Origin: Alphaproteobacteria bacterium
GTDB taxonomy: Bacteria; Pseudomonadota; Alphaproteobacteria; Bin95
Length of the DNA stretch: 64,000 nt
NCBI GenBank assembly: GCA_964291285.2
Contig: OZ219787.1
Coordinates: 384,001 to 448,000 of the forward strand
Direction: 5' to 3'
Below, in pieces: positions 17,348-61,623 of the stretch; the stretch's first letter is position 1; each line of letters begins with the position of its first letter. The position numbers were made by a program, and so were the translations under genes. The notes under the pieces were generated by a model, which made no database searches, was not told the origin of the DNA, and saw only the letters and a program-made list of their open reading frames with translations.

Positions 17348-17374
17348 CGGGAACGCGGATGTTCCGGGAGCAGG

Positions 17375-20831: not shown

Positions 20832-20832
20832 C

Positions 20833-23277: not shown

Positions 23278-24462
23278 ATGACGACAACAAGACATGGCCC
23301 GGCATGGCCGGGGGACGGCAGGCAGCATGGCGGATGCCGTGCGCGGAGCTTCACGGGCAAGGTTCTTCTTGCGGCCTCGGGTCTTGCGCTTGCGGCGGGT
23401 CCTGCGTCTGCGGCGGAGATGCTGAGCGTGGGCGTCGGCGGCTACATGCAGCAGTGGTTCGGGATGGTCGATGTGGACGACGAGGCGGACGCGATGAAAG
23501 AGGGCGGCGTTGCCCAGCAGTCGGACAGCGAGATCTTCTTCAAGGGCAAGCTGGACGCCGACAACGGCATGACCTTCTCGATGAAGGTGGAGCTCGAGGG
23601 CAACAGTCAGTCGGGTTCGATGATCGACGAGTCGCAGGTGACGGTTGGCGGCGAGTTCGGTCAGATCACGCTGGGAGCCGAGGACAGCGCGGTGGTTCTC
23701 ACCCACATGGGCGTGCGGGATGCCGGTTTCGGCATGCTCTGCGGCGACATGGGCAGATGGATCAACGGCATCAACGAGTGCGGGCCCTCCGGCCTGGGGA
23801 CCGCGGGCCACGGCCTCGGCGACAAGAACCTGGTGAGCTACTTCACGCCGCGGGTGAACGGCGCGCAGATGGCCGTGAGCTACATCCCGAACACCGGGCA
23901 GGAAGGCCGTGGCGGCAATGTGAAGAACAACGACATGGACGCCTGGTCGGTCGCCGGCAACTACAAGGGCGATTTCGGCAACATGAACCTGGCGTTCTCT
24001 GCGGGCCACTACCAGAAGAGCCAGATGGACGACGACGACTACACCTTCTCGAATGCCGGCCTGCGGGTGGGCATGGGGGCGTTCAGCTTCGATGTCGCCT
24101 ATGCCACGGCGGACGACGGGATGAAGACGGACTCCTCGGATGATGTCGAGGTCGTGGCCGCCGGGGTGATGTATTCGGAGGGCGCGCTGGCGGTGAGCCT
24201 GAGCGGCACGATGACCGAGGCCGACGACGGCACGGAGCAGTCGGGCGGCCTGTTTTCGGCGAGCTACATGCTGGCGCCGGGCATTGCCTGGAGAAGCTCG
24301 CTGTTCATGGCCGAGAGGGACCGCGGCACGATGCCCGGCAAGCACGATTTCGGCGTGCCGGCGGCGGAAAGAGGCAAGCCTGCGCCCAGCACCGGCAAAA
24401 ATGCCGCCGGCAGCAACGTCGAGGGCGCCGGGTTCGTGACCGGCATCACGCTGAGCTTCTGA
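23278..24462 (+). CDS. Alphaproteobacterial porin (right arm)
   Basis: About 7 amino-acid differences from the left copy. Confidence 0.9.
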   Translation: MTTTRHGPAWPGDGRQHGGCRARSFTGKVLLAASGLALAAGPASAAEMLSVGVGGYMQQWFGMVDVDDEADAMKEGGVAQQSDSEIFFKGKLDADNGMTFSMKVELEGNSQSGSMIDESQVTVGGEFGQITLGAEDSAVVLTHMGVRDAGFGMLCGDMGRWINGINECGPSGLGTAGHGLGDKNLVSYFTPRVNGAQMAVSYIPNTGQEGRGGNVKNNDMDAWSVAGNYKGDFGNMNLAFSAGHYQKSQMDDDDYTFSNAGLRVGMGAFSFDVAYATADDGMKTDSSDDVEVVAAGVMYSEGALAVSLSGTMTEADDGTEQSGGLFSASYMLAPGIAWRSSLFMAERDRGTMPGKHDFGVPAAERGKPAPSTGKNAAGSNVEGAGFVTGITLSF

Positions 24463-24553
24463 CCTGCGTTTCGCGCGGCGAAGGAACGGTTCAAACGGTT
24501 TGCCCGGTTTGTCCGGGCTTGAGAGAAGGAAGGAGAAGGGTTCGATGGGAACC

Positions 24554-26290: not shown

Positions 26291-26316
26291 CCGGCTCCCG
26301 GAGCATCACCTTTTCG

Positions 26317-26351
26317 GGCCCCGGCTGCTTCAGGCGGCCGGGGCCTTCTTT
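26317..26351 (+). terminator. Intrinsic terminator between lipoprotein and Slam (right arm)
   Basis: GGCCCCGGCTGC-TTCAG-GCGGCCGGGGCC followed by TTCTTT. Confidence 0.6.
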
Positions 26352-26405
26352 CCTCCGGCGCCCTCCGGGTTGCCGGAGGTTCCCCTTGCACGGACAATGG
26401 TTTTC

Positions 26406-27656
26406 ATGCGCATACCCGCTCTCGTCATTGCCGCCGGGCTGTGCCTGTTCGCCGCCGCCGCCCACGGCCAGGACGCGACCGGCGAGCGGTTCCGGGCGGG
26501 CATGGAGGCGCTTGCCGCCGCGCAGGCCGCTCCGGACCGGGACGCCCGCGACGGGAAGCTCGACGAGGCGATTGCGGCGTTCCGGGCCATCCTGGTGGAC
26601 CGCCCGGACCTGGTGCGGGTGCGCCTCGAACTCGCGCACGCCTTCTTCCTGAAGGAGGAGGACAGCCTGGCGCGGCGGCATTTCGAACAGGTGCTGGCGG
26701 GGACGCCGCCGCCGGCGGTGGCCGCCAACATCTGGCGCTTCCTCGACATCATGCGCGCGCGGCGGCGCTGGGAGGCGCATTTCGGCCTGGCGGTGGCGCC
26801 CGACAGCAACCTCAACGCCGCGTCGGGGGAGCGCACGGTCTTTCTCGACACGCCGTTCGGGCGCCTGCCCTTCACCCTCGACGGCGACGTGTCGCGCAAG
26901 TCGGGCATCGGCGTCTCGCTGTGGGGCGGCGGCGAATACCAGGTTCCGTTGTCGTCGGCCCTGCGGCTGCGCGCCGGGGCGGACGCCAGCGCGCGGGAAT
27001 ACAAGGGCGGGGCGTTCGACCGCCATTCGCTCTCGGCCCATATCGGCCCGCGCCGGCTGATCGACGGGAGCACGGAGGCGAGCCTGCTGGCGGTGGTGGA
27101 CCGGCAATGGACCGCCGGGCGGCCCGAGACCGACCGCTTCGGCGTCCGGCTGGAAGGCGCGCACCGCCTGACGCCGCGCCTCGCCCTGTTCGCCCACGCC
27201 AGCGCCACCCGGCGCAACTGCCGCGGCTGCAACTGGCTCGACGGCCCGGCGGGCGATGCGATGCTCGGCGCAAGCTGGGCCGCCCTGCCGATCCTGCGCC
27301 TCGGCGGCCATGCCGGATACAACTGGACCCGCGCCAATGCCGGACACTGGCGCAACCGCGGACCCCGGGCCGGCCTCGGCGCGACGCTCGCGCTGCCGGC
27401 CGGCTTCACCCTCGGCCTGCGCGCCTCCCTGCAGCGCGCCGCATACCAGGGACAGGGCTTCGCCCACAATACCATCGACCGCAGGCCGCGCCGGGACGAG
27501 ACGCGCAGCCTCTCGCTCTCCGTGCACAACCGCGCCGTCACCGTGCTCGGCTTCAGCCCCCGCCTCTCGCTCATCCGCGAGGAGCGCGATACCAACGCCC
27601 AGACCCTCGACTACAAACGAAACCGCGCCGAACTCTCCTTCGTGCGACAGTTCTGA
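26406..27656 (+). CDS. Slam/T11SS-type surface lipoprotein exporter (right arm)
   Basis: About 10 amino-acid differences from the left copy in 416 aa. Confidence 0.88.
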   Translation: MRIPALVIAAGLCLFAAAAHGQDATGERFRAGMEALAAAQAAPDRDARDGKLDEAIAAFRAILVDRPDLVRVRLELAHAFFLKEEDSLARRHFEQVLAGTPPPAVAANIWRFLDIMRARRRWEAHFGLAVAPDSNLNAASGERTVFLDTPFGRLPFTLDGDVSRKSGIGVSLWGGGEYQVPLSSALRLRAGADASAREYKGGAFDRHSLSAHIGPRRLIDGSTEASLLAVVDRQWTAGRPETDRFGVRLEGAHRLTPRLALFAHASATRRNCRGCNWLDGPAGDAMLGASWAALPILRLGGHAGYNWTRANAGHWRNRGPRAGLGATLALPAGFTLGLRASLQRAAYQGQGFAHNTIDRRPRRDETRSLSLSVHNRAVTVLGFSPRLSLIREERDTNAQTLDYKRNRAELSFVRQF

Positions 27657-27756
27657 CCGGACACGCCGATAGCGGCAGCATCGGGCCGGGTGCGGCGCAG
27701 GCAGAAGACCGGCGCCATTCGCTCATGAAGGAGCGGGTCTGCCGCGGCCGCCCCGG

Positions 27757-28902
27757 TCATGTCTCCAGCACGGCGCTCATGGCCTGCCCGACGCGTTCCG
27801 CGGCGGCCTCGATGTCGCGGTCGGCGAGATGGGCGTAGCGCAGCGTCATGCGCACACTGGAATGCCCGAGCAGGCGGGAGACCACCGGGACCGGCACGCC
27901 GTTCATCACCGCATGGCTGGCCATGGTATGGCGCAGGTCATGAAGGCGGACATCCCCGATGCCGGCTTCGCGTCTGACGCGGTACCAGAGCGGCAGGTCG
28001 GGGCTGCGCGGGCGGGCGGGGTCGCACGGCGAAGGAAACACGAACGGGCTGCCCGTGCGCGGCTGCCGGTCGAGAATGGCCCGGGCCCCGCTGCCGAGCG
28101 GGACCGTCCTCGGTCCGGTCTTGGCATCGGTGAGCGCCAGCCCGTCCTCGCGGACTTCGGACCAGCGCAGGCCCGTGATCTCGCTTCTGCGGCAGCCGGT
28201 CAGCAGCAGGAGGCGGACGATGTCGGCCTGCTGCCGCGCGCTCTTCCGGGTCTGCGCGTCCAAGGCGGCATGGAGGCGTGCGAGTTCCTCCCGGGACAGG
28301 AACCGCGTGAGCGCCGTGCGGCGGTTCGGGGCGATGCGCCCGACGGGATTGACCTCGATGTGGCCGCAGGCGAGGGCGAAGTTGAGTATCTGCCGCAGAC
28401 GGGCAAGGCAGGGATTGGCGTTGCCCGGCGCGGTGCGGCTGTATCGCTCGAACCAGCGCCGGATGGCGGCCTCGCCGATGCGGTCCAGCGGCTTCGATCC
28501 GAATGCCGGCAGGAGCTGGCCCGCAAGCTGATAGCGGGCGGTCCTCTGCGTCGAGGGCTTGTAGCCGTCGAAATGCGCCTCCTTCCATGGACCGGCGACG
28601 AAATCCCGGAACAGCGGGACCGGCTGCGCCGGCCGGGCCTCTTTTTCCGGCTCGGGGTTCGCCTTGCGGGCATGGCATTCCCTGCGAACCTCCTCCAGGC
28701 TCTTCACGCCGACCGGGCCGAGCGAGACGCGCCTGGTGCGCCCGCCCCTGTCGAGCAGCAGCACCCAGCTGCGCCCGCCGGTGGGCCGCACCCGGACGCC
28801 GAGACCGGCGATGCGCGTGTCCCAGACCGTATATTCCCGCTCGCGGGGGCGGAGACGGGCGACGGCGGCGTCGGTGAGTTTCATCCGTTCCCGGCCCGCC
28901 AT
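27757..28902 (-). CDS. Tyrosine integrase B with arm-binding N-terminal domain (intact)
   Basis: YTVWDTRIAGLGVRVRPTG arm domain, then LTGCRRSE, HDLRH, LLGH and TLRY. Confidence 0.92.
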   Translation of the reverse strand: MAGRERMKLTDAAVARLRPREREYTVWDTRIAGLGVRVRPTGGRSWVLLLDRGGRTRRVSLGPVGVKSLEEVRRECHARKANPEPEKEARPAQPVPLFRDFVAGPWKEAHFDGYKPSTQRTARYQLAGQLLPAFGSKPLDRIGEAAIRRWFERYSRTAPGNANPCLARLRQILNFALACGHIEVNPVGRIAPNRRTALTRFLSREELARLHAALDAQTRKSARQQADIVRLLLLTGCRRSEITGLRWSEVREDGLALTDAKTGPRTVPLGSGARAILDRQPRTGSPFVFPSPCDPARPRSPDLPLWYRVRREAGIGDVRLHDLRHTMASHAVMNGVPVPVVSRLLGHSSVRMTLRYAHLADRDIEAAAERVGQAMSAVLET

Positions 28903-30026
28903 CAGCCTGCCTCCAGCGCCGCGCCGACCGTCTCGGCTGCGTCCTGCACCATGGCGTCGGCGACATGGGTATATTTCAGCGTGGTTTCCGGCCTGCGGTG
29001 GCCCAGCAGCCGGCCGATGGCGAGCACCGTCTCGCCCTGCCGGAGGGCAAGGCTCGCATGCGTATGGCGCAGGTCGTGAAGGCGGGCGTCCTCCAGGTCC
29101 GCCTCGGCGCGGACCCGGTTCCAGAAGTGGAACAGCCAGCTTCCGCTCCGGGGCCGGTCGCCCCTCGATGCCGGGAATATCCACCGCCCCTTCCGCTCGA
29201 GACGATCAAGCACCGCCCGGGCCGGCTCCGACAGCCAGACTGTCCGGGGCCCCGTCTTGGAATCGCGCAGGAACAGGCGGCCTTCGCGGTAGTCGGACCA
29301 TTGCAGGGTGAGGATCTCGCCCTTGCGGCATCCCGTGAGCAGCAGCAGGCGGATGACGGCGACATACTGCGGCCAGCGGGCCTCATGCGCCTTGAGCCTC
29401 CCGGACAGGCGGCGGATTTCCTCGTCCGGGAGGAACCGCTCGCGGCCCTTGCGGCGGTAGCGCCTGATCCCCCGGCAGGGATTGGAGCCCTCCGGGCGCA
29501 GGCCCATGGCCTCCGCCTCCCTCATGATGACGGACAGCACCGGCATCGACCGGTCCGCCGCCGCCGGCACCGCGCGCAGGCGGGCGAACCAGTGCCGCAC
29601 CTCCTGCCGGTCGATCTCCGCAATCGGCCTTCCGGCGAAATGCGGCAGAAGCCGGTTGCGCAGATAGCTTCGGTTCACGATCATCGTTCCGGGCTTCCAG
29701 ACGCCCTCGTGACGGCGGAACGCGATCCCGGCGACGGCTTCGAAGAGCGTCTCGTCCGGCGTGAGCGGCGCCTCCCCGCCGCGCCTGATGGTGGCGAGCA
29801 TCTCCGCAGCCGCGGCCCGCGCTTCGCCGATGCTCATGCTGTCGGCGTCGCCGACAATCTTCCAGATACGCGCGCCGCGATGCTGGCAGTGGATGAAGAA
29901 CTGCTTGCGGCCCGAGGGCGACACACGGACGCCGAACCCCCTGAGCCTGCCGTCGCGGACCTCGCGGACGGACCTGCGGGGCTTGAGCGCCTTCACGCGC
30001 GCCTCGGTGAGGGTAGTCTTCGCCAT
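28902..30026 (-). CDS. Tyrosine integrase A with arm-binding N-terminal domain (intact)
   Basis: VRDGRLRGFGVRVSPSG, LTGCRKGE, HDLRH, LLGH and TLKY. TGATG overlap with integrase B. Confidence 0.92.
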   Translation of the reverse strand: MAKTTLTEARVKALKPRRSVREVRDGRLRGFGVRVSPSGRKQFFIHCQHRGARIWKIVGDADSMSIGEARAAAAEMLATIRRGGEAPLTPDETLFEAVAGIAFRRHEGVWKPGTMIVNRSYLRNRLLPHFAGRPIAEIDRQEVRHWFARLRAVPAAADRSMPVLSVIMREAEAMGLRPEGSNPCRGIRRYRRKGRERFLPDEEIRRLSGRLKAHEARWPQYVAVIRLLLLTGCRKGEILTLQWSDYREGRLFLRDSKTGPRTVWLSEPARAVLDRLERKGRWIFPASRGDRPRSGSWLFHFWNRVRAEADLEDARLHDLRHTHASLALRQGETVLAIGRLLGHRRPETTLKYTHVADAMVQDAAETVGAALEAG

Positions 30027-33831: not shown

Positions 33832-34858
33832 CCTGCTTATTCTCAAGGATCATCCTGCAATGAGTAGTTGATATGGGATGGGTTGTGTTCTGACGGCGCT
33901 GTGAAGGAAGCGTGGGATCATGGAGTTGAGTTGGTATCGTCGGTTGTATCGCCATGCGAAGCTGGCGAGGTAGCGTTCGGCATGGTCGGGACCGAGCTTT
34001 CGGTAGGTTCCGGCGATGGCGCTCTTGATGTTGCCGAGGGTCGTGTTGACCCATTTGAAGGGGGCCATGCGGGCTGCCCGGCGGCCTGAGCCGGTACGGA
34101 TGGCGCTGTGGCTTGCGGCGATGCCGTCGAGGGCGTTCCAGCAGTGCAGGGCATCGGTGACGACCTCCGTCCCCGGGGCCAGCCAGCGTTTGGCGCCGCG
34201 CGCGATCTCGCGCTTGCGGAAGCCCCTGACCGGGACGAGCTTGACCTTGCGCGGAGCCCCTTCGGCGCTGGTCGAGACCGCCGCCACGAAGGGCGTCTTG
34301 CCCGGCGCGCCCCGGCCGCGCTTGCCGCCGGAGCGCGACCCGCCGAGATAGGCGTCGTCCATCTCGACCCGTCCTTCGAGCCGCGTGTCGGCTTCGCGCC
34401 GGGCCATCACCGCCATGATCTTCTGCTTCATGCTCCAGGCGGTCGGCTGCCTGACCCCGAGGCGGCGACCGAGTTCCACCGACGAAATGCCGTTCTTCGC
34501 CGTCACCACAAGGTGGATCGCCGCAAACCACAACGTCAGGGGCAGCTTGGTCGAGTGGAAGATCGTCCCCGACGTCACCGAAACCTGCTTCTTGCAGCGG
34601 TTGCACTGGTAAAGCCTGCGCCCGGCAAGAATGCAGTGCCCCCGATGCCCGCAGGAGCCGCACTCGAAACCGTTCGGCCAGCGCAATCGGGCTAGCACCG
34701 CCCGGCACTGATCCTCCGTGCCGAACGACGCTCGGAACGCATCGTCGCTCAAGCCACGAACACGCGATGCAACCTTGAATGCCATATCCATGACCTCCCG
34801 ATAACAGAAACCCTTCCAAACCTACAATCTCACAAGATGACTCTCAAGAATAAGCAGG
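33832..34858 (-). mobile_element. IS1595-family element, copy 2
   Basis: Same ends and transposase as copy 1, with 8-bp target duplication TTTCCTTT. Confidence 0.95.
33850..34791 (-). CDS. IS1595-family transposase
   Basis: Protein identical to 12601-13542. Confidence 0.95.
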   Translation of the reverse strand: MDMAFKVASRVRGLSDDAFRASFGTEDQCRAVLARLRWPNGFECGSCGHRGHCILAGRRLYQCNRCKKQVSVTSGTIFHSTKLPLTLWFAAIHLVVTAKNGISSVELGRRLGVRQPTAWSMKQKIMAVMARREADTRLEGRVEMDDAYLGGSRSGGKRGRGAPGKTPFVAAVSTSAEGAPRKVKLVPVRGFRKREIARGAKRWLAPGTEVVTDALHCWNALDGIAASHSAIRTGSGRRAARMAPFKWVNTTLGNIKSAIAGTYRKLGPDHAERYLASFAWRYNRRYQLNSMIPRFLHSAVRTQPIPYQLLIAG

Positions 34859-48789: not shown

Positions 48790-51700
48790 CTACCAGCGGA
48801 TCAACGATCGCAGCATCACGCCGTGATCGACGGACCCGTTATCGTTGGCGGCCTCGCGGCGCGTGGCGTCGAGACTGACCTCGAAGCCGGGGTCACCGCG
48901 CACCGCCGAGGTCAGCCGCCAGCCCATGCGGTACTCGCGCGCCGTCTCCGACATCCCGAGCCCGACGTTCGGCGTGCCGGTAAAGCCGCCGCCGAACAAG
49001 GCCATGCCGTAGCCGACCTCGGCGTCGAACCGGCTCGACGGCTCCGCGTCGCCGTTCGCCGTCAGCCCCGACGACGCGGGCAGCGCCCACAGCCGCTGCG
49101 AGCCCGCCGGGTCCACGCCCCAGGACGGCGTGAGCGACATCGACAGGCCACGCCCAGCGCCGCCCGGCACGAGTCGGAGCTGCCCCGACACGCCCCATTC
49201 GTCGTAGCCGTCTTGCGCATGCACCGCGAGGCCGTGCACCTTCAACGCCATGTCGAGGCCCCGCGACGGATCCGCGTAGCCGAGGCCGGCCCCGACCTCC
49301 AGGCCCGTCCCCGTCTCCGCGTCGCCCGCGTCATGGCGCACGCCCAGCTCGACCGAAGGCGTCAGCGCCGCGCCGCTCGCGAACGAGAAGGTGCGCGAGC
49401 CGTCGAGCATCGCCCGCACCCGGCTCGACTCGCCCCGCGCGCCCATCAGGCTGCCGAACTCCGAGGCCGTCACCCGGTCGGACTCCGTGCGCACCCAGAA
49501 CGCGTCCGCCTTCAGCGCCAGCGCGAACCCGCCGGGCTCGGCGGGCGTGAGCAGATCGCCCCGCACCCCCGTCGCCGCGAGCGTCATCGAGAGGTCCGTG
49601 CGGTAGCTCTGCGGCACCGCGCCGTGAAGGTCGAGGCTGAGGCGCCCCGAGCCCGTGCCCGCGAGCCCCCACACCGACACCCGGTCCGAGAGCGCGAGAC
49701 GCGCATAGGGCATCGCCATCGTCGCCGTGCTGCCGAGCGCGTAGCGCCAGCCCGCATCGCTCGCCGTGCCTTCGCCGACGCTGTGCGTCATCGCGAAGCC
49801 CATCAGCAGCCGGCCCCGCTCGTAGTCCATGCCCATCGAGCCCGTCGCCGCCTCGCCGGTGAGGCCCAGCCCCGGCACCGCCGCCGAGAACCGCGACACC
49901 GACGCGCCCTGGCCCCAGCTCGTCCACTGCGACCCGGCGCCCTGGCCGAGCACCGCCCGGAACGACGCGCCCAGCAGCAGCTCGCGCGCCGTCACCCGGC
50001 GTGCGCCGCTGACGGTGGCGGGATCGTTCCAGCCGCTGGTCAGGCCGTGCCGCACGAACGGGTCATCGTGGTCTGCCGCCGGCGCGGAAGGCGCGCCGAA
50101 GGTCTGCGCGAACCCCGTCAGCACCGTCGCCAGCGCCTCGCCGCCCTCGGCCTCGCCGAAGTTCATGCGCTGCCCCGCGACCGTCACGTGCGAGCCGGCG
50201 TCGCGCGGCGTCTCCAGCCGCGCCGTCACCGACGCGACCGCGTCCGAGGCCACCATGCGCCCGAAGCGCGCCAGCCACATCGCCTGCAGCGGGTCGGAAT
50301 TGCGGATCACGCCCTGCGTCTCGCGCTCCCCGGCCGCGAGCGTCGCGCCCTGCGGGTTCGAGAACCGCAGCAGGAAGTACTCCATCCCCTCGTCGATCGC
50401 GTCGTCGAGGATCGGTACCGAGACCGTCTTCCGCGTCTCGCCCGCCGCGAAGGTGAGCGTGCCCGAGGTCGCGGTGTAGTCCGCGCCCGACCGCGCCGGC
50501 GCCGCCCCCGCCCAGGCGTGGCTGGCGTCCGCGGTCGCGTAGTCCACCGTCACCGTCCCTGTGGCAGCTCGGCTCAGGCGTACCTGGAAGACCACCGCAG
50601 CGTCGGTCCCCTCCCGGGCGATGCCCCGCTTGGTCGCGATGTCCGGATTGTCCTCGTCGTTGTCGGCCACCGCCACCGTCGCGCGCGCCGCTGCGCCCAC
50701 CGTGTAGCCGGTGCCGCTCGCGACCGTCGCCACGATGCCGCCGTCCGCCTCGTCCGCGCCGTCGTTCACAGTCGCGACCGAGAAGGATGCCGATGCCGTC
50801 CCGGCCGGGATGGTCACCGTGCGCGTACCCAGCGCGGAGGCGTGCGCGAAGGCGCCCTGCTGGGCGACCGACACGGTGACCGCAAGGTCCGCCGCCGGTG
50901 CGGGCGAGGCCGTCAGCGTGAAGCCCGCCGACGCGCCTTCCGTCACCGGAGCGTTGCCCGCCACTGTGACTACCGGGGTTGACGTGCCGCCGCCCTCGAT
51001 CCCGCGCAGTGCCGCCGCTACCTCCACCCAGCGCGTCCAGCCCCGGTCCGCATAGCCCTGCGCCTCCGCCGCAGTCATCGGCTGGAGCGAGGAGTCGGAG
51101 ACGGACTGGCCGAGCACGAGCAGCACCCGGTCCCAGCGGTCCGTGTGCGCCTTGTTCGAACTGTAGCGCGGATCGTCGCGCCACCCCTGGACCTTCACGA
51201 TCAGCGTACCGTACTTCGCGGGCACCGTCACCACCGGGGTCGATGTGCCGCTGCCTTGCTGCGGGTCGTCGTCGCTGATCGTCACCTGCACCGAGGACGC
51301 CGTGCCCGCGGTCAGGCCCGAGGACAGGGTGCCAAGCGCCACCGTGAACGTCTCGTCGTCCCCGTCGGTGTCATCGCTCGTCGTAATCGTGCCCGAGGTC
51401 GACGTGCCGCCGGCGGGAATCGCGAGCGACGACAGGGTCCCGTGGTCCCCGTCCTCCGACGTGCCCCCGGTCACGGTCAGCGGAATCGTTACATCCTCCG
51501 ACAGCGCCTTCGCCAGCGTCGCCGTCACCGTGACCGACGATCCCTCGCCCACCGGGTTGGGAGTGGCCGAGAGCGTGACGGCGACCGCCGCCTCGCGCGT
51601 CACCGTCACCGTGTAGGTGCGCTTGTAACGCGCGTCCGGGGCCGTCACCACCACCGTGATCGTGTTCTCCCCCACGGCCAGCTGAACCGGCGTCGCCGGG

Positions 51701-51924
51701 TCGCCGCCGTTCACCGTCACCCGCGCCTTCGGGTTCTCGGGGCTCGCGGTCACCGTGACCTCGGTCACGTCGTGGGCCACCGTCGCGCTGTAGGTCTCGC
51801 GCTCCGGGTCGAACGCCTCGTTCAGGCTCACCTGCCCGCTTGTCGTGGCCCCGGCGCCCGTCGCGCCGGCCGCCATGCACAATGCCGCCGACAGCAGCAC
51901 CGCAATCCGTGCAATCCTCTTCAT
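48790..51924 (-). CDS. Large adhesin: cadherin-like beta-sandwich, Calx-beta repeats and autotransporter-like beta-barrel
   Basis: Signal peptide, YSATVAHDVTEVTVTA...LAVGENTITVVVTAPD...TYTVTVTR, DYTATSGTLTFAAGETRKTVSVPILDD, and a barrel ending in W. Confidence 0.88.
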   Translation of the reverse strand: MKRIARIAVLLSAALCMAAGATGAGATTSGQVSLNEAFDPERETYSATVAHDVTEVTVTASPENPKARVTVNGGDPATPVQLAVGENTITVVVTAPDARYKRTYTVTVTREAAVAVTLSATPNPVGEGSSVTVTATLAKALSEDVTIPLTVTGGTSEDGDHGTLSSLAIPAGGTSTSGTITTSDDTDGDDETFTVALGTLSSGLTAGTASSVQVTISDDDPQQGSGTSTPVVTVPAKYGTLIVKVQGWRDDPRYSSNKAHTDRWDRVLLVLGQSVSDSSLQPMTAAEAQGYADRGWTRWVEVAAALRGIEGGGTSTPVVTVAGNAPVTEGASAGFTLTASPAPAADLAVTVSVAQQGAFAHASALGTRTVTIPAGTASASFSVATVNDGADEADGGIVATVASGTGYTVGAAARATVAVADNDEDNPDIATKRGIAREGTDAAVVFQVRLSRAATGTVTVDYATADASHAWAGAAPARSGADYTATSGTLTFAAGETRKTVSVPILDDAIDEGMEYFLLRFSNPQGATLAAGERETQGVIRNSDPLQAMWLARFGRMVASDAVASVTARLETPRDAGSHVTVAGQRMNFGEAEGGEALATVLTGFAQTFGAPSAPAADHDDPFVRHGLTSGWNDPATVSGARRVTARELLLGASFRAVLGQGAGSQWTSWGQGASVSRFSAAVPGLGLTGEAATGSMGMDYERGRLLMGFAMTHSVGEGTASDAGWRYALGSTATMAMPYARLALSDRVSVWGLAGTGSGRLSLDLHGAVPQSYRTDLSMTLAATGVRGDLLTPAEPGGFALALKADAFWVRTESDRVTASEFGSLMGARGESSRVRAMLDGSRTFSFASGAALTPSVELGVRHDAGDAETGTGLEVGAGLGYADPSRGLDMALKVHGLAVHAQDGYDEWGVSGQLRLVPGGAGRGLSMSLTPSWGVDPAGSQRLWALPASSGLTANGDAEPSSRFDAEVGYGMALFGGGFTGTPNVGLGMSETAREYRMGWRLTSAVRGDPGFEVSLDATRREAANDNGSVDHGVMLRSLIRW

Positions 51925-51936: not shown

Positions 51937-52980
51937 CTAATTTCCGGTATTCATTTGAAGATCGCGCAGCCGGGGGTTCGCGTTGTCGACGATCGTGACC
52001 GTGACCACGGACGATGGGCCCGACACCACGTCGCGAGCCACCGTGGGGTTAAACTCCCCGGGGACCGTGACCATGGACCATGTGCCCACCGCCACGCCCG
52101 ACGGCAGGTTCGCCGTGTCCACCGCCACCGTGAACCGCTCGTCGTCGGGGTCGTCGTCCGGGTACGTTTTGATCGTGCCCGACCCGCTCGTCGAGCCGGC
52201 GTTGATCCTAATGCCCCTGAGGAACCCGCGGTCGCCCGCCTCCGACGTGTCCCACGTCACCACGAGCGGGATCTCCACGGCGTTCGCCAGCGGCTTCGTC
52301 AGAGTCACCTGCAACTGCACCGGCGAACCCTCGGCCACCGTGTTGCGCACCGCCCGCAGCGACACCACCGGGCGGGGGCGGAGGTCCTTGATCGTCACCT
52401 CGACCGAGGTCGTGGCGCCCGCCGTCAACCCCGACGGCAGCGCGCCCAGCGCCACCGTGAAGGTCTCGTTGTCCCCGTCGCTGTCCTGGTGCGTCGGCAA
52501 GGCGACCACGCCGCAGCTGCGCTGAATGGAGCCGTCGATGGGGATGGAGTACCCCGTGCGGATCGGCAGGCGGCCGTTCGTGTGGCCCGATAGCGAGATC
52601 CCCCAGTCGCCGTTCTCCGAGGTGCCGTGGCTCACCACTACCGGAATGCGCACCGTGCCCGTTGGCACCACCGCCCGCAACCCGCTTCCGTCCTTCAGGC
52701 AGGCCGTCACGCCCAACCACTTGCCCTCCGTCACCGGGTTGGGGGAGGCGGAGAGGGTGACGGTCTGCGCCTCCGCTGGCGTGGCCGTGAAAGGCGAGAG
52801 CGCACCGAGCAGCAGTGCGAGAGCGGGAAGGAGGCGGAGTAGGCGGACGCGGGAGCGCCCGGGACGAGGGTCAGGCCGGGCGGGGGCCCGCGGAACCGCC
52901 CTGGCTGACGCCGGGGAACGCGAACGGGTGGAAGAGGCCGATCCGGGCGCGCCCGACTCCTTGCGCGGAGAATCCGCCAT
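51937..52980 (-). CDS. Secreted Calx-beta-like adhesin tip protein without a membrane anchor
   Basis: Extended leader and signal peptide (LLPALALLLGAL...AEAQ), then two Calx-beta-like domains related to those of the downstream gene. Alternative GTG start at 53037. Confidence 0.78.
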   Translation of the reverse strand: MADSPRKESGAPGSASSTRSRSPASARAVPRAPARPDPRPGRSRVRLLRLLPALALLLGALSPFTATPAEAQTVTLSASPNPVTEGKWLGVTACLKDGSGLRAVVPTGTVRIPVVVSHGTSENGDWGISLSGHTNGRLPIRTGYSIPIDGSIQRSCGVVALPTHQDSDGDNETFTVALGALPSGLTAGATTSVEVTIKDLRPRPVVSLRAVRNTVAEGSPVQLQVTLTKPLANAVEIPLVVTWDTSEAGDRGFLRGIRINAGSTSGSGTIKTYPDDDPDDERFTVAVDTANLPSGVAVGTWSMVTVPGEFNPTVARDVVSGPSSVVTVTIVDNANPRLRDLQMNTGN

Positions 52981-53045
52981 GACGCCGAACAGGGGCTTGT
53001 CGGTACATTCAGTAAGGCCGAACACGTTCGCCTCCACTTTCCGCC

Positions 53046-53079
53046 ATTACGCGCGATAACTGTCGCTATCGCGCGTAAT
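53046..53079 (+). other. lox-like recombination site L (13-8-13)
   Basis: ATTACGCGCGATA-ACTGTCGC-TATCGCGCGTAAT with perfect 13-bp inverted arms, 38 bp upstream of the Cre-like gene. Confidence 0.85.
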
Positions 53080-53117
53080 CCGGGGCTCCTGTGTGCGGAC
53101 GGTTTGGAGGCCCCTGA

Positions 53118-54101
53118 ATGTTCCTTGAACCCCCGTTCAACACTTCGGAGGAGCCGGCGGCGGGCCGGGAACCCGCGCTGGAGGAGCAGCTCGAGCACTT
53201 TGTCCGGGCGGCCCGCGGCGCGTTCAGCGGCAGCACCGAGCGGGCCTTGAGGTCCGATCTCGCCATCTACGCCGAGTGGTGCGGGGAGTGCGGGGAACGG
53301 GCGCTGCCGGCCACGCCCGAGACGATCGCCGCCTTCGTCGACGCAAAGGCGGAACTGCGCGCGCCCGCCACGGTGCGCCGCTACGTCACCAGCATCGGCA
53401 TTGCCCACCGGGCGCTGGGGCTGGAGAAGACGGTGAAGAGCGCGCCGGTGCGGCTGGCGCTCAAGCGCATGCACCGGAAGAAGGGACGTCGCCAGGACCA
53501 GGCGACGGGACTGACCTGGCCGCTGCGCCAGCGCCTGCTGGAAGCGGCGGGGGACAGATTGCTCGACGACCGCAACCGCGCGCTGCTCGCCGTCGCCTAC
53601 GACGCGATGCTGCGCCGGGCGGAGCTGGTTGCACTGCAAGTCCCTGACTTGCTTGGGGAAGTGCGGGGCGAGGGCAGCCTGCTGGTGCGCCGCTCCAAGA
53701 CCGATTGCGAAGGCCGGGGCGAGATCGTCTGGGTCGGGCGGGACACCGTCCGGCTGGTCCGGGCGTGGCTCGACTGCGCCGGAATATCCGACGGCATGCT
53801 GTTTCGCGCGGTCCGCAAGGGCGGTCGGGTCGGGGGGCGGCTGAATCCCTGCGAGGTGTCGCGCATCCTCAAGGCGATGGCGCGCGAGGCCGGCCTGCCG
53901 GAGACGGTTGTGGCGGGCCTGTCGGGCCACAGCACCCGGGTTGGCGCGGCCCAGGACATGGTCGCGGCCGGCATCGAGCTGCCGGCGATCCTGCACGCCG
54001 GCCGGTGGAAATCCACGGCCATGGTCAACCGCTACGGCGAGCGGCTGCTCGCGAAGCGCAGCGGGGCGGCCCAGCTCGCCCGGATGCAGGGAAGGGGCTG
54101 A
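53118..54101 (+). CDS. Cre-type tyrosine recombinase
   Basis: SAM-like N-domain without an arm-binding domain. Catalytic R (MLRR), K (SKTD), HSTR, W (GRW, Cre-like) and Y (MVNRY). Confidence 0.92.
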   Translation: MFLEPPFNTSEEPAAGREPALEEQLEHFVRAARGAFSGSTERALRSDLAIYAEWCGECGERALPATPETIAAFVDAKAELRAPATVRRYVTSIGIAHRALGLEKTVKSAPVRLALKRMHRKKGRRQDQATGLTWPLRQRLLEAAGDRLLDDRNRALLAVAYDAMLRRAELVALQVPDLLGEVRGEGSLLVRRSKTDCEGRGEIVWVGRDTVRLVRAWLDCAGISDGMLFRAVRKGGRVGGRLNPCEVSRILKAMAREAGLPETVVAGLSGHSTRVGAAQDMVAAGIELPAILHAGRWKSTAMVNRYGERLLAKRSGAAQLARMQGRG

Positions 54102-54410
54102 GACACGCCGGGGGGTGTACGGAAACGGCCGCCGGGCTATGATGCTCCGGCGGCCGGAACGTGCCGCAATGGCGGATCGGCGGGCAGAATCGGGTCCGCG
54201 AACGCCCGGCAGTTCCAGATCCGGAAAATGCTATCGCGCACAAAAACCGGCGGGTCCGGCGGCCCCGGCAGCCTGCCGACATGTCCCGGACAGGGCCAGA
54301 AAATCCCCGAATAATCGCTGTAATTCAACGGGTTGTCGTCCGAGGGAAGCGGGGTGTCGTGTCCTGCCGCGGATCGGGCGAAGCGCCGGGTACGAAAGCC
54401 GGTTGACAAT

Positions 54411-54444
54411 TTTATGCGCGATAGCGACAGCTATCGCGCATAAA
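54411..54444 (-). other. lox-like recombination site R (13-8-13), inverted relative to site L
   Basis: TTTATGCGCGATA-GCGACAGC-TATCGCGCATAAA. The reverse-complement spacer GCTGTCGC matches the site L spacer at 7 of 8 positions. Confidence 0.85.
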
Positions 54445-55242
54445 ACGGCGCGGCGGAATCCGACCTTGCGCCACCCCCGGGACGGCGCAAGTTATTGTCT
54501 TCGCGTCACTTTCAGGTTCCGAACGCTCGCTCTGCTGCCTGATCGGCGTCGTCCACGCGCCACAGGCTGATATCACGCCGGGAACAGGGGCGCCTGCGGT
54601 GCTTCGGAAACGAAAACGCTGCGCACGGCTGCCCGTGCGCGGCGCTGCTGTCGAGGCCGGGGCTGTGCTCCGGAACCCGCTACCCGGGTCCGGCGGGGGC
54701 GGACCGCAGAACCGGGCGCGGCGTTCCGTTTTTCGGCTGCCTGGGCTTCGTGCGCACATCTCCCGACTATTCCCTGTCTCCGCAGGCGCGCGTCCGCGGA
54801 GGATGCGCTTCAGGTGTCAGGTGGGAACGCGGTAGCTTGCATCCAGTTGCATTTTTCAATGCGATCCATTGGCGATGCTTATCCGCGAGTGCCGCAGCGA
54901 AGCCGGACCGGACTTCGCGTTCTCCCTTCTCCGCTCCCCCTTGTTAGCGAACCCGGGTCCGCATGGATAATGCCGGTCGCCAGAACATTCATGCGCACGC
55001 GGCATGCCGCGAGGCCGGAGTGTATGGCGCCGCCACGGATCGCGCGTCCCCAATCTGGGGGAGACTCCGGAAGAATTTGCGCGGCGTTTCGGCGAATTGC
55101 ACGAAGACGCATGCCCCCGGCGCCGCCTCGCGGCCTCCACTTTGCCGAGGCCCCGGCCCAGCACCCGCAGTAGATGCCGGGCAAGGCATGTCCGGAAACT
55201 CCATACCGCGTGTCAGGAAACGCACCGCCCACTTCGCTATGA

Positions 55243-56694
55243 GGTCGTGTCCCCAGGGGTGGTGTAGGAGCTGAAGCTTCCGGTGGTAGCTGTGGGTAAG
55301 TGGCCCGCCGCCGCGACCGTCTGGAGTCAGGCGGCGGCGGGCCACTTACCCACAGCGGAGGCCATCGCGGTGCCGGTTAGGGTTGGGCTGTCACAGTCCA
55401 CCTGACCGGAGGAGTACCACGATGACCACCACCGACATGATGACCCTGCGGGCGCTGTTGGAGAAGAGTTCCGACGCCGACCTGCTTCGCGAGATGATCG
55501 GGTTCACGGCCGCGCGTCTGATGGCGCTTGAGGTTGAGGGCCTTGCGGGCGCCGCGCACGGCGAGCGCTCGCCGGACCGGATCACGCAGCGCAACGGCTA
55601 CCGGGACCGGGTCTGGGAGACGCGGGCCGGCACGGTCGAACTGAAGATCCCGAAGCTGCGCAAGGGGAGCTACTTCCCGGGCTTCCTTGAACCGCGGCGG
55701 ATGGCGGAGAAGGCGCTGACGGCGGTGATCCAGGAGGCCTACATCAAGGGCGTATCGACCCGCTCGGTGGACGACCTGGTGCAGGCGATGGGCATGTCGG
55801 GCATCTCCAAGAGCCAGGTGTCGCGGCTGTGCGGCGAGATCGACGACAAGATCCGCGACTTCCTCGACCGGCCGCTGGAGGGCGACTGGCCGTATCTCTG
55901 GCTTGACGCGACCTATGTGAAGATGCGCGAGGCCGGGCGCGTCGTCTCGGTCGCGGTCACCATCGCGGTGGCGGTCAACGATCAGGGCCGGCGCGAGGTG
56001 CTCGGCATGGCGATCGGCGCGTCCGAGGCCGAGACCTTCTGGACCGACTTCCTGCGCTCGCTCGCCCGCCGCGGCCTGCGCGGCGTCAAGCTGGTGATCT
56101 CCGACGACCACAAGGGCCTGAAGGCCGCCGCCACCCGCATCTTCGGCGCCACCTGGCAGAGATGCCGCGTCCACTTCATGCGCAACCTGCTCGCCCATGC
56201 CGGCAAGCAGGGCCGGCGCGTCGTCTCCGCCTTCGTCACTACCGCCTTCGCCCAGGAGGATGCAGACAGCGCCTCCGCCCAGTGGCGCCAGGTCGCCGAC
56301 CAGCTCAGGCCCAAGGCGCCAAAGCTCGCCGCCATCATGGACGAGGCCGAGCACGATGTTCTCGCCTACATGACCTTCCCGGCCGCGCACCGCGCCAAGC
56401 TGCACTCGACAAACCCGCTCGAACGCCTCCACGGCGAGATCAAGCGGCGCACAAACACCGTCGGCATCTTCCCCAACGAGGACGCCATCACCCGGCTGAT
56501 CGGCGCAATCCTGCTCGAGCAGAACGATGAATGGGCAGTCCAGAGAGCCAGATACATGACGCTGGAATCCATCGCTCCCGTGAGCGACAATACAACCGTC
56601 AAGTTGCCCGCCGTGGCAGCCTGAGCGTTCCGGCCCTACCCGCCGGACACCGCTACGGACGCCAGGCTCTTACACCACCCGCGGGGGCACGATC
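55243..56694 (+). mobile_element. IS256-family element, copy 1 (1452 bp)
   Basis: Terminal repeats GGTCGTGTCCCC and GGGGGCACGATC, with 8-bp target duplication CGCTATGA. Confidence 0.95.
55422..56624 (+). CDS. IS256-family transposase
   Basis: [41 protein letters not shown]. Confidence 0.95.
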
Positions 56695-57042: not shown

Positions 57043-58494
57043 GATCGTGCCCCCGCGGGTGGTGTAAGAGCCTGGCGTCCGTAGCGGTGTCCGGCGGGTA
57101 GGGCCGGAACGCTCAGGCTGCCACGGCGGGCAACTTGACGGTTGTATTGTCGCTCACGGGAGCGATGGATTCCAGCGTCATGTATCTGGCTCTCTGGACT
57201 GCCCATTCATCGTTCTGCTCGAGCAGGATTGCGCCGATCAGCCGGGTGATGGCGTCCTCGTTGGGGAAGATGCCGACGGTGTTTGTGCGCCGCTTGATCT
57301 CGCCGTGGAGGCGTTCGAGCGGGTTTGTCGAGTGCAGCTTGGCGCGGTGCGCGGCCGGGAAGGTCATGTAGGCGAGAACATCGTGCTCGGCCTCGTCCAT
57401 GATGGCGGCGAGCTTTGGCGCCTTGGGCCTGAGCTGGTCGGCGACCTGGCGCCACTGGGCGGAGGCGCTGTCTGCATCCTCCTGGGCGAAGGCGGTAGTG
57501 ACGAAGGCGGAGACGACGCGCCGGCCCTGCTTGCCGGCATGGGCGAGCAGGTTGCGCATGAAGTGGACGCGGCATCTCTGCCAGGTGGCGCCGAAGATGC
57601 GGGTGGCGGCGGCCTTCAGGCCCTTGTGGTCGTCGGAGATCACCAGCTTGACGCCGCGCAGGCCGCGGCGGGCGAGCGAGCGCAGGAAGTCGGTCCAGAA
57701 GGTCTCGGCCTCGGACGCGCCGATCGCCATGCCGAGCACCTCGCGCCGGCCCTGATCGTTGACCGCCACCGCGATGGTGACCGCGACCGAGACGACGCGC
57801 CCGGCCTCGCGCATCTTCACATAGGTCGCGTCAAGCCAGAGATACGGCCAGTCGCCCTCCAGCGGCCGGTCGAGGAAGTCGCGGATCTTGTCGTCGATCT
57901 CGCCGCACAGCCGCGACACCTGGCTCTTGGAGATGCCCGACATGCCCATCGCCTGCACCAGGTCGTCCACCGAGCGGGTCGATACGCCCTTGATGTAGGC
58001 CTCCTGGATCACCGCCGTCAGCGCCTTCTCCGCCATCCGCCGCGGTTCAAGGAAGCCCGGGAAGTAGCTCCCCTTGCGCAGCTTCGGGATCTTCAGTTCG
58101 ACCGTGCCGGCCCGCGTCTCCCAGACCCGGTCCCGGTAGCCGTTGCGCTGCGTGATCCGGTCCGGCGAGCGCTCGCCGTGCGCGGCGCCCGCAAGGCCCT
58201 CAACCTCAAGCGCCATCAGACGCGCGGCCGTGAACCCGATCATCTCGCGAAGCAGGTCGGCGTCGGAACTCTTCTCCAACAGCGCCCGCAGGGTCATCAT
58301 GTCGGTGGTGGTCATCGTGGTACTCCTCCGGTCAGGTGGACTGTGACAGCCCAACCCTAACCGGCACCGCGATGGCCTCCGCTGTGGGTAAGTGGCCCGC
58401 CGCCGCCTGACTCCAGACGGTCGCGGCGGCGGGCCACTTACCCACAGCTACCACCGGAAGCTTCAGCTCCTACACCACCCCTGGGGACACGACC
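57043..58494 (-). mobile_element. IS256-family element, copy 2 (inverted)
   Basis: Same element, with 8-bp target duplication TCCGCTCC. Confidence 0.95.
57113..58315 (-). CDS. IS256-family transposase
   Basis: Protein identical to copy 1. Confidence 0.95.
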
Positions 58495-58905
58495 TCCGCT
58501 CCCGCCACCAATACTGATCTCGTTCCGCTGTACAATCTGCGTTTTATTTTCATTATGCAGGATTGCGGCGACTCTTGCCGGGGCGCGAAAAGTCAAGCTT
58601 ATTCCGTATGTTATGGCGCGCGCGCAAGCCGCCGGGCCCATAGCCGGTCTTCATGCCGGAAGGGGCGAAATTCAGCTGCTGACCACGACTGGCCCTTCAT
58701 GACCTTGATGTCGAATTTCTGATCGTGCCCCTCGCGTACTGGGCAAATCAATTCCGCTTCCGCCTGTCCGACCCCAGAGGCCCACTCCATGTGGTGGCGC
58801 AAATATGTACCATGGGCGCGGCCGTAACTTATCCCAGTAGTTCAAGGCAGAGTCTGCGGGCTTGGTCAGCGATGGAACATGCCTTGCTAGGGTTCTGACA
58901 GTTAG

Positions 58906-60919
58906 CCCGACTTCCGCAACTCGGCTTGAGAATCGACTGATTTGACGGTTTTCCGGCGCGAGAAGTGTCGGATTTCGGTGCAGTACCTCTCGGGACCGGC
59001 TTGTAGTGCCGACCTACCCCCTTGATCGGGCTGGCGAAGATCCGGACGCTGCGCTGATGTTCGTGCGCTGCAAGAGACGCTTCAAGGACGGCAAGGAGCA
59101 CCGCTACTGGAGCGTTGTGGAGAACGTCCGGGTCCACGGCGGTCGGGTTGTTCAGCGTCAGGTGCTCTATCTCGGGGAGATCAACGACAGCCAGCGAGCG
59201 GCGTGGTGCCGCTCGATCGAGGTGGTGGAGGGCAAGTCGCGATCACGGCAGATGGCGCTGTTTCCCGAGGACCGGGAGGCGCCGGCGCTGACTTGCGAAG
59301 TGGTGAAGATCGACCTCTCGCAGGTGGCGCTTCACGACCCGCGCCAGTGGGGGGCGTGCTGGCTGGCGCTGTCCTTGTGGGACCGCCTGGACCTGGACCG
59401 CTTCTGGGAAGAGCGGCTGCCGGCGAGCCGGCAAGGCACGCGGTGGCTGGACATCCTGAAGATCCAGGTCTGCTACCGGCTGATCGACCCGGGCAGCGAG
59501 TGGCGCCTTCACCGTCACTGGTATGAGCACAGCGCGCTTCGCGATCTTCTGGGTGGCGAGCGGGCGATCGCCGACGACACACTCTATCGCTGTCTCGACA
59601 AGCTGCTGGCGCACAAGCAGGGCTTCTTCTCGTTTCTGCGCGACCGCTGGGCGACGCTGTTCGAGGCGCGCTTCGACGTGCTGCTCTACGACCTGACCTC
59701 GACCTACTTCGAGAGCGATCCGCCGTTCGATGACAAGCGCCGCTTCGGCTACAGCCGGGACAAGCGGCCCGACTGCGTGCAGGTGGTGATCGCCCTGATC
59801 GTTACGCCGCAGGGCTTTCCGCTGGCCTATGAGGTGATGCCGGGCAACACCTCCGACGACACCACGCTGGCGGCGTTCCTCAAGAAGATCGAGGATCAGT
59901 ATGGCCGCTCCGAGCGGGTGTGGATCATGGACCGCGGCATCCCCACCGAGGAGACGCTGGCCGCGATGCGCGAGGGCGAGGCGCCGGTGCGCTACCTGGT
60001 GGGCACGCCCAAGGGCCGGCTGACGCGGCTCGAGAAGGTGTTCCTGGGCCTGCCCCGGCAGGAGGTGCGCCAGTCCGTGACTGTCAAGCTTCTGGTCGAG
60101 GATGGCGAGCTCTACGTCCTGGTGCGCAGCGAGGGGCGGCAGGTGAAGGAACGCGGCATGCGCCGGCGCCGGCTGAAGAGGCTGTGGCGTCGATTGGCCG
60201 AGTTGCAAGGGCAGTCGAACAGCCGGGATCAGTTGTTGCTCAAGCTCGGCGCCGCCAGGAAGGAGGCCGGCCGGGCCTGGAGCCTGGTCGACATCACCGT
60301 GCCCGGGACCGACAGCGAACTCGCCGCCAACGGCTTCTCATTCCGCCTGCAGCGCGACCGGCTGCGCCAGGTCCGCCGCCGCGAGGGCCGTTACCTGCTG
60401 CGATCCAACATGGTCGCCGAAGACCCCGCCACGCTGTGGCATCTGTACATGCAGCTCGTCGAGATCGAGCAGGCGTTCAAGGAACTCAAGCACGACCTCG
60501 CGATCCGCCCCATCTTCCATCAGCGCCAAGAGCGCATCGAGGCGCATATCTTCGTCTCGTTCATCGCCTACTGCCTGCTGGTGACCCTGAAGAACCTCGC
60601 CCGGCCGCGCGCCCCGGGCCTCACCCCACGCGCCATCCTTGAGGCCTTCGCCACCATCCAGATGGTGGACGTCCATCTGCCAACCACCGACGGCCGGCAC
60701 CTCGTCCTGCCGCGCCACACCCGGCCGAACAAGGAGCACGAGCTACTGCTGCAACAGCTCGGCATGACCTGGCCGCAGCAACCCGCACCCCGGATCTCCG
60801 CCTGACGGCACACGGCGCCGCCTCTCCGTTCGCCGCCTTGTAGTGCCGACCCTCGGGGAGACGATCAAGGCTATTCAATGAGTTAGCATCCTCATGACCC
60901 CCGAGTTGCGGAAGTCGGG
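58906..60919 (+). mobile_element. IS1634-family element, copy 2
   Basis: Same terminal repeats as copy 1. Flanks TTAG and ATAG do not match. Confidence 0.93.
59006..60805 (+). CDS. IS1634-family transposase
   Basis: One amino-acid difference (W to R) from copy 1. Confidence 0.93.
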   Translation: MPTYPLDRAGEDPDAALMFVRCKRRFKDGKEHRYWSVVENVRVHGGRVVQRQVLYLGEINDSQRAAWCRSIEVVEGKSRSRQMALFPEDREAPALTCEVVKIDLSQVALHDPRQWGACWLALSLWDRLDLDRFWEERLPASRQGTRWLDILKIQVCYRLIDPGSEWRLHRHWYEHSALRDLLGGERAIADDTLYRCLDKLLAHKQGFFSFLRDRWATLFEARFDVLLYDLTSTYFESDPPFDDKRRFGYSRDKRPDCVQVVIALIVTPQGFPLAYEVMPGNTSDDTTLAAFLKKIEDQYGRSERVWIMDRGIPTEETLAAMREGEAPVRYLVGTPKGRLTRLEKVFLGLPRQEVRQSVTVKLLVEDGELYVLVRSEGRQVKERGMRRRRLKRLWRRLAELQGQSNSRDQLLLKLGAARKEAGRAWSLVDITVPGTDSELAANGFSFRLQRDRLRQVRRREGRYLLRSNMVAEDPATLWHLYMQLVEIEQAFKELKHDLAIRPIFHQRQERIEAHIFVSFIAYCLLVTLKNLARPRAPGLTPRAILEAFATIQMVDVHLPTTDGRHLVLPRHTRPNKEHELLLQQLGMTWPQQPAPRISA

Positions 60920-61179: not shown

Positions 61180-61623
61180 CTAGAACGGGATCTCGTCCCC
61201 GTCCATCGGGTCGCCGCCAGCCGGCGCGAAGCCGTCCGCCGAGTCCGGGCCGGGCTGCGCGGCGTTGCCGTTCGGCTTGTCGAGGAACTGGACGCGCCCG
61301 CCGGGGACCAGCAGGATCTCGGTCGAGAAGCGGTCGCCGTCCTCACCCGGCCTGGACCAGCGCCGGGTCTGGAGCTTGCCGTCGACGTAGACCAGCCGGC
61401 CCTTGGTGGCGTGCTTCCCGAGCATGTCGATCAGCCCGTCCTGGAAGGTCACGACCCGGTGCCACTCGGTCCTGTCGACCTTCTCGCCGGTCTGCTTGTT
61501 GATGAACGACTCGTCGGTCGCGATGCTCAGGTTGGCGACGCGGCCGCCGTTCTGCAGGTGGTTGACGGTGACGTCCGCGCCGAGGCGGCCGATGATCTGC
61601 ACCTTGTTCAATCCGAAGCTCAT
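61180..61623 (-). CDS. ssb: Single-stranded DNA-binding protein
   Basis: LNKVQIIGRLGAD, TEWHRVV, VYVDGKLQTRRW and C-terminal DEIPF. Confidence 0.95.
   Translation of the reverse strand: MSFGLNKVQIIGRLGADVTVNHLQNGGRVANLSIATDESFINKQTGEKVDRTEWHRVVTFQDGLIDMLGKHATKGRLVYVDGKLQTRRWSRPGEDGDRFSTEILLVPGGRVQFLDKPNGNAAQPGPDSADGFAPAGGDPMDGDEIPF

Follow-up and report, generated by a model that had tools for sequence, protein, structure and literature searches.

The DNA analysed here, referred to as the window, is a 64,000-nucleotide stretch of contig OZ219787.1 from an alphaproteobacterial genome (lineage Bin95) of five contigs (five replicons), 6.1 Mb and 68% GC. It contains a tyrosine recombinase gene that lies between two inverted sites resembling loxP, designated L and R, and beside this cassette are genes for putative surface proteins. 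The recombinase gene is intact, occupies 53118-54101 of the plus strand and encodes a protein of 327 amino acids that matches PF00589 (Phage_integrase) with E=1.5e-13. A profile built from ten homologues and compared with the structures in PDB matched Cre chains at E=1.2e-37 across query residues 31-317, and therefore across both domains, the next family being XerD at E=7.9e-06. The putative catalytic residues R166, K194, H271, R274, W297 and Y306 are invariant across 10 homologues, and in the profile match to Cre structures they align with the catalytic residues of Cre, given in PMC10250229 as R173, K201, H289, R292, W315 and Y324. Cre of phage P1 is approximately 30% identical to the 327-residue protein. 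These features support the prediction that the enzyme is a Cre-type tyrosine recombinase, and they bear out the Cre-like R-K-HxxR-W-Y set described in an earlier note that was made from the sequence alone.

Site L (53046-53079) reads ATTACGCGCGATA-ACTGTCGC-TATCGCGCGTAAT and site R (54411-54444), which is inverted relative to L, reads TTTATGCGCGATA-GCGACAGC-TATCGCGCATAAA. Each is 34 bp long with a 13-8-13 arrangement, and the 13-bp arms are perfectly palindromic within each site and mismatched at two of 13 positions between the sites. Reverse-complemented, the R spacer reads GCTGTCGC and agrees with the L spacer at seven of eight positions, and the central CTGTCG is the same in both and inverted. 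The pattern GCGCGATA-N8-TATCGCGC occurs twice in the window, at L and R, and in none of 100 shuffles; a looser 13-mer search of the window that allowed two mismatches gave five matches against 2.2 expected, which alone is not significant. The DNA enclosed by the sites, a candidate invertible segment of about 1.33-1.4 kb, consists of the single recombinase open reading frame (ORF) and 310 bp of noncoding DNA. The locus thus has the 34-bp target of a Cre-type system, with 13-bp inverted arms and an 8-bp asymmetric spacer beside the gene, and also the arrangement of an inverton, with inverted sites and compatible crossover regions around a segment. The sequences and coordinates of the two sites given in the earlier note are exact and its recombinase is indeed the only gene between them. 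However, the note had overlooked a third half-site within the enclosed DNA (54232-54244), as well as a conserved stretch that extends the module beyond R.

Homologues of the recombinase are found in 7 of 16 other genomes of the same genus, and a scan of one genome per species identified 397 relatives. Eighty of these were fetched as loci which, together with the two copies of the source genome, gave 82 loci for examination, given here as L followed by a number. The fetched loci come from Alpha- and Gammaproteobacteria, Acidobacteriota, Gemmatimonadota and Chloroflexota; the database descriptions of many relatives point to sponge metagenomes, and up to seven copies occur in one metagenome-assembled genome (MAG). 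Both sites were located by a motif-based finder in 63 of the 82 loci, only L in 11, only R in four and neither in four, with some of the incomplete loci cut by contig ends. The central 6 bp are identical and inverted in 61 of the 63 complete loci (the exceptions are L087 and L098), as they are in the window, a figure that carries the caveat for co-variation that where a locus held several candidate sites the best-matching pair was retained. There are 19 distinct cores among the 63 loci, and random pairing of L and R across loci produces a match in 10.8% of cases. Within loci, L and the reverse complement of R are 86% identical in the arms and 99.2% identical in the cores, and yet across loci no columns of the site vary more than core positions 5-7. 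Cores that match within loci despite varying across loci would be expected of L and R sites that have to recombine with each other. Therefore, the comparison supports a conserved module with a co-evolving inverted pair of sites rather than a chance pairing. Two loci, L042 and L044, each carry two tandem lox-like sites 47 bp apart on the L side (at 2692 and 2739, and at 5883 and 5930, respectively) in addition to one R site.

The most direct evidence for inversion comes from these same two loci, which lie on two contigs of one MAG. The segment aligns in direct orientation at 96.7% identity, and both flanks are exchanged and reversed, at 80.9% and 94.6% identity. The breakpoints fall inside the sites, with the outer of the two tandem L-side sites used. 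Swaps of a single flank that abut the sites are seen for L079 and L091 (98.8% identity over 2784 bp), for L043 against L034 and L039, and for L073 and L077. The pair L078 and L080 was dismissed as a flank swap because a second cassette in L080 accounts for the likeness. A conserved tail motif, which in the window lies at 54483-54521 of the plus strand, 38 bp outside R, marks the flank without the surface gene, and placement with a tail profile across the 82 loci assigns it to R in 33 and to L in six. When these states were mapped onto a tree of the recombinases (FastTree, omitting L091, which has an internal stop), at least four changes were required. Taken together, the comparison of these loci indicates that inversion between such sites has occurred in relatives of the cassette.

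Immediately to the left of L are two minus-strand genes. The first (51937-53025) encodes a protein of 362-366 amino acids with no family match and a signal-peptide-like stretch from about residue 60. The second (48790-51924) encodes a putative surface or adhesion protein of 1044 amino acids with Cadherin-like and Calx-beta domains, and it is from domains that we infer the label "adhesin" for the L-side genes. Translation probably starts at a GTG (53025) that lies 21 bp outside L, 5 nt after a GGAGG at 53030-53034. Many loci share this layout, having a Shine-Dalgarno-like motif and start codon 10-30 nt outward from L, which leaves no space for a promoter between site and gene. A tblastn search of the 80 fetched loci placed relatives of the 1044-residue protein on the L side and minus strand in 27, and on the R side and plus strand in three (L044, L070 and L089); no match was obtained in 50, and no other arrangement occurred. 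In all 20 loci with both a tblastn match and a tail assignment, the gene is opposite the tail. ORFs of more than 1000 amino acids that start no more than 46 nt outside a site are found at L in 13 loci and at R in one. This length limit was also applied to the long-ORF counts on flank B, the DNA beyond R, because spurious ORFs in high-GC DNA inflate automatic counts. Pfam searches with five of the site-abutting ORFs longer than 1000 amino acids identified cadherin, FN3, Calx-beta, SWM-repeat, Ig-like or sulfatase domains. These observations support a linkage, conserved across phyla, to predicted large surface-protein genes pointing away from the cassette. The earlier note had placed adhesin genes beside L, transcribed away from it, and had proposed looking for paired 13-8-13 sites near such genes in homologous loci. 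The orientation holds for both genes and the label fits the 1044-residue protein, with the smaller neighbor lacking any family match; among the homologous loci, both sites are present in 63 of 82.

Several conserved features lie in the part of the segment next to R. Directly after the recombinase stop, an alignment of 21 copies reveals a promoter-like block, TGTACG-16-TATGAT (54116-54143, plus strand), that would read toward R; the output of a consensus promoter scan does not include this block. About 180 bp inside R is the accessory half-site TATCGCGCACAAA (54232-54244, plus strand), a conserved block in the same orientation as the outer arm of R. A further conserved block, TTCAACGGGTTG (54324-54335, plus strand), lies about 90 bp inside R and resembles the tail motif in inverted orientation, as seen from weak reverse-strand matches to the tail profile. 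This block, the other conserved blocks and the tail may resemble IHF sites. By their conservation, the inner blocks and the tail mark R as a complex site; L, near which no conserved accessory motif is apparent, is a simple one. The accessory half-site and the conserved blocks around R hint that the natural reaction may involve more than the core sites. The final feature is an outward-facing, -35-like TTGACA (54403-54408, plus strand) located 2 bp inside the inner arm of R. When one mismatch and up to 12 nt from the inner arm are allowed, 49 of 67 R sites have this hexamer, 31 of them without a mismatch and 45 of them exactly 2 bp from the arm; in the corresponding controls, none of 74 L sites had it on the inner side and one of 67 R sites had it on the outer side. 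With a gap of 17 bp, the -10 element would occupy positions 3-8 of the spacer, where common hexamers are TACAGT, GACAGT and AACAGT. In the window, this position facing the tail reads GACAGC (54426-54431). After inversion it would read GACAGT (the complement of 53059-53064) and would be followed by the outer arm, the GGAGG and the GTG, a geometry that would be canonical for a putative promoter with a short leader. In 11 loci the two sides differ in the putative -10, and in each of them the final T is on the gene side.

Given these features, we read the locus as a self-contained, Cre-type DNA inversion switch for the neighboring surface-protein genes, and assign this reading a probability of about 0.6. 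The recombinase would bind the 34-bp sites L and R and exchange strands within their identical, oppositely oriented 6-bp cores, flipping a 1.33-kb segment that includes its own gene. The end of the segment next to R would bear an outward promoter element, with TTGACA 2 bp from the R arm and the -10 in the crossover spacer. In the present orientation, this promoter end would face the noncoding tail and leave the surface genes OFF; flipping would turn it toward those genes, with their ribosome-binding site and their start codon 21 bp outside L, and switch them ON. We infer promoter activity, the ON and OFF assignment and flipping in the source strain from sequence comparison, and on that footing the regulatory mechanism is plausible. 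The earlier note had gone as far as to call the cassette a self-inverting on/off switch for an adhesin. Inversion in relatives (the L042/L044 pair, and a tail that adjoins R in 33 loci but L in six) and the conserved gene linkage agree with that claim; its on/off component is a deduction from TTGACA and the geometry. A broader formulation is more tentative, and we would consider it somewhat doubtful as a whole. Here, with the -35 on the invertible segment and the -10 in the crossover spacer, recombination would assemble or dismantle the promoter of the giant adhesion-protein genes, whose products are eukaryote-like (cadherin, FN3, Calx-beta), and the cassettes would form a horizontally spreading, hitherto undescribed family of natural Cre-type "flip" cassettes that gives phase-variable surfaces to sponge-associated and other host-associated bacteria of at least four phyla, with about 19 spacer specificities distinct from one another and numerous variant arms that could serve as orthogonal recombinase/site pairs.

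Several observations weigh against the switch. In the closest clade, all 13 tail-classified members, including both copies of the source genome, have the tail at R, and switching in the source lineage may be rare, biased or lost. Across all 82 loci, 43 have no detectable tail and hence no assigned state. A search of sequencing runs, in all cases as Logan contigs, found the locus in three runs and small shares of it in 20, and listed no RNA run with the locus; the three show reference junctions only and no strand-changing joint, in a data type that cannot show minority orientations and so speaks neither for nor against flipping. The tblastn links to the 1044-residue protein rest partly on repeat domains and may not reflect orthology, and the second complete cassette of the source genome is not adjacent to an adhesin-like gene. 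With respect to the promoter, the putative -10 GACAGT is weak, and the 11 loci with discordant -10 hexamers belong mostly to one clade and are not independent. The consensus promoter scan did not report the TTGACA/spacer promoter at R, its one weak promoter-like match lying elsewhere, at 54287-54315. Moreover, only 38 bp separate L from the ATG of the recombinase gene, which bears on the promoter of the recombinase itself. Beyond R, a hairpin at 54466-54494 just outside the site was considered as a terminator and rejected (z=-1.27, not significant), and no consensus RNA structure was found across 18 tails.

The second cassette is located on another replicon (G000:C4:608228-609626) and has the same layout, with a recombinase that is 85% identical. 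Its spacers, GCTTTCAC and GTGAAAGC, are exact reverse complements, and both contain the core CTTTCA as opposed to CTGTCG in the window. Homology between the two copies begins within 1 bp of L and continues through R for at least 680 bp, as far as insertion sequence (IS) elements. Because homology runs past R, the conserved unit is more than site, gene and site. The homologous part of flank B in the window (54445-55121, plus strand) is 82-74% identical to the C4 copy, and flank B is cut by an IS256-family element at 55241. We call no gene in flank B (54445-55240) or in the 310-bp noncoding region, because tblastn similarity is alike in every frame and Pfam gives no match; Rfam returned a single sub-threshold match to a microRNA family, which was taken as chance. 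On its L side, the C4 copy is followed by a 58-residue ORF, a LysR-type gene, a porin gene, a 538-residue ORF and a Slam gene; on its R side, past the IS, is a gene for a TrwC relaxase. A decayed third cassette (G000:C3:1415190-1415791, locus L013) retains 94 residues from the C-terminal end of its recombinase (76% identity) together with a single half-site, and adjoins an IS256 copy and a TbpB-like lipoprotein gene.

These copies are relevant to an alternative that we consider unlikely, in which the cassette is a mobile or recombination module whose sites integrate, exchange or shuffle DNA between replicons, with the surface genes as cargo and inversion as a by-product without regulation. Up to seven copies per MAG, 397 relatives spread over Pseudomonadota, Acidobacteriota, Gemmatimonadota and Chloroflexota, and a recombinase tree that departs from taxonomy are in keeping with such a module. 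So are the abrupt start of homology at L in the two source-genome copies, the position of the C4 copy upstream of the relaxase gene, the many IS elements in the window and the single flank shared by L079 and L091, which implies recombination between different copies. However, inverted sites yield inversion and not excision, and the unit is not bounded by L and R, as homology and the conserved tail continue past R. The strict placement of gene opposite tail, the gene starts that abut the sites and the one-sided TTGACA are, moreover, hard to explain without regulation. A conventional insertion sequence or transposon bounded by terminal inverted repeats was rejected as the main explanation, given the homology extending at least 680 bp past R, the tail outside R and left flanks that are related in many copies.

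Two other explanations accept the enzyme and its sites and differ in their role. Inversion could mainly govern the recombinase itself, or transcripts on the tail side such as antisense RNA, with the surface genes ON in the common orientation seen here. The same orientation as in the window is found in 33 of 39 classified loci, conserved motifs lie on both sides of R, and with 38 bp between L and the ATG the recombinase promoter must overlap L or lie outside it and would change on inversion. Nevertheless, we regard this as quite improbable: a -35-like element is conserved at the inner side of L in none of 74 sites, and the consensus scan gave no promoter-like match toward the surface genes in the present orientation. 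Lastly, the system could serve to resolve plasmid or chromid multimers as Cre/loxP does, with the second site an incidental duplicate. The enzyme is Cre-like, the source genome has five replicons, and plasmid homologues that are 43-52% identical carry one site in five of six cases beside partition, replication or toxin-antitoxin genes. Against this, the inverted second site is kept in 63 of 82 loci with co-varying cores, and many copies reside on multi-megabase chromosomes. In addition, a resolution site needs no inverted partner, and such a partner would invert monomers, making this explanation very improbable. A system dedicated to resolution only was likewise rejected as the main explanation, on account of the two inverted sites per cassette, the single-site state being confined to the more distant plasmid homologues.

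Some cassettes occur in groups. In L080 and L089, a second recombinase paralogue lies less than 5 kb from the first, in direct orientation in L080 and inverted in L089, which suggests possible arrays of cassettes around one surface-gene cluster. One MAG contains seven cassettes (L023, L028-L031, L041 and L053) with four cores, CTATCG twice, CTATTA three times, CTGTTA and CTGTCA. With only four cores among seven cassettes, some copies could recombine with one another, and the single flank shared by L079 and L091 may be the product of recombination between cassette copies.

The remainder of the window has IS-dense stretches that give it the look of a mobile-DNA-rich island. The IS256-family (Transposase_mut) element that cuts flank B is present in two 100% identical, inverted copies 348 bp apart (55241-56694 and 57043-58496) and in more than 25 further copies over all five contigs, one of these copies being inserted in the corresponding part of flank B in the C4 cassette. 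Other IS elements, at 2396-13542, 33850-34791 and 59006-60805, belong to Transposase_29, IS66, IS1595 (two copies) and DDE_Tnp_1, the last with two 599-residue copies at 10108-11907 and 59006-60805. An SSB gene is located at 61180-61623. The window also contains a 7-kb inverted duplication (14117-21197 and 22406-29607) with arms that are 94-98% identical, each with a tyrosine integrase gene, a Slam (SlipAM) gene, an ORF of 585 or 596 residues and a porin gene. The 585/596-residue ORF has diverged to 81-88% identity, and its neighbors are 96-98% identical. A 7-bp tandem repeat tract is found at 20706-20831 and at 22774-22926. The porin, 538-residue ORF and Slam cluster beside the L site of the C4 cassette resembles the gene set of this duplication.

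PMC3553980 and PMC10250229 describe Cre-type systems that have a single site close to the gene and act in resolution or circularization, and the searches that led to their discovery looked for one palindrome no more than 1 kb away from the gene. Cre/loxP of phage P1, Vika/vox, Dre/rox, VCre, Nigri/nox and Panto/pox share with the window the R-K-H-R-W-Y set and a 34-bp 13-8-13 site beside the gene. In contrast to these systems, the window has two inverted sites around the gene, accessory motifs accompany one of the two, and the predicted product is an inversion. The six plasmid homologues, from cultured bacteria (Methylobacterium, Methylorubrum and Acetobacter), are annotated merely as "tyrosine-type recombinase/integrase". 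Five of the six have a lox-like site at -72 or -99 and one is without a recognizable site; a downstream partner is present in none, and their neighbors are ParB, RepA and VapBC-type genes. They resemble the window in having a site with a GATA-N8-TATC core at the same -72 position upstream, and differ from it in the absence of both a partner site and giant surface-protein neighbors. By analogy, their layout is that of classical Cre/loxP-like resolution, and these distant single-site homologues suggest a possible route from a resolvase system to a switch.

Functionally, the closest analogue is the Hin/hix H-segment of Salmonella. In that system a serine recombinase, dependent on an enhancer and Fis, is encoded, together with an outward promoter for a surface-structure gene, inside the segment that it inverts. 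The window shares the placement of the recombinase gene within its own candidate invertible segment, the enzyme being a tyrosine recombinase instead. Tyrosine recombinases invert short segments to phase-vary surface factors in FimB/FimE-fimS, RecV and other promoter invertons, and in the PsrA/CreX hsdS system of Streptococcus pneumoniae; to our knowledge, none of the FimB/FimE, RecV or PsrA/CreX enzymes is close to Cre. The fim and RecV switches have their recombinase gene outside the segment and short repeats of 9-30 bp, whereas in the window the gene is inside and the sites are lox-like with 13-8-13 geometry. A search of full-text literature, exclusive of supplementary tables that possibly list candidate enzymes or sites, found no account of a Cre-type gene within an inverted lox-like pair, or of such switches in sponge symbionts.

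We regard the locus as a real Cre-type inversion switch that has apparently gone undescribed so far. A 1.4-kb flip most likely switches the surface genes, and the design of the cassette recurs in many sponge-associated bacteria. Cre-type recombinases are among the most used enzymes in genome engineering, and if the reading is correct, the related enzymes, arms and spacers (19 cores from 63 loci) would provide a catalogue for work on orthogonality. Phase variation would then be a second natural role for Cre-type enzymes, beside single-site resolution and circularization, and the cassette would be a first candidate for how sponge symbionts vary the expression of their typical giant, eukaryote-like adhesion proteins.

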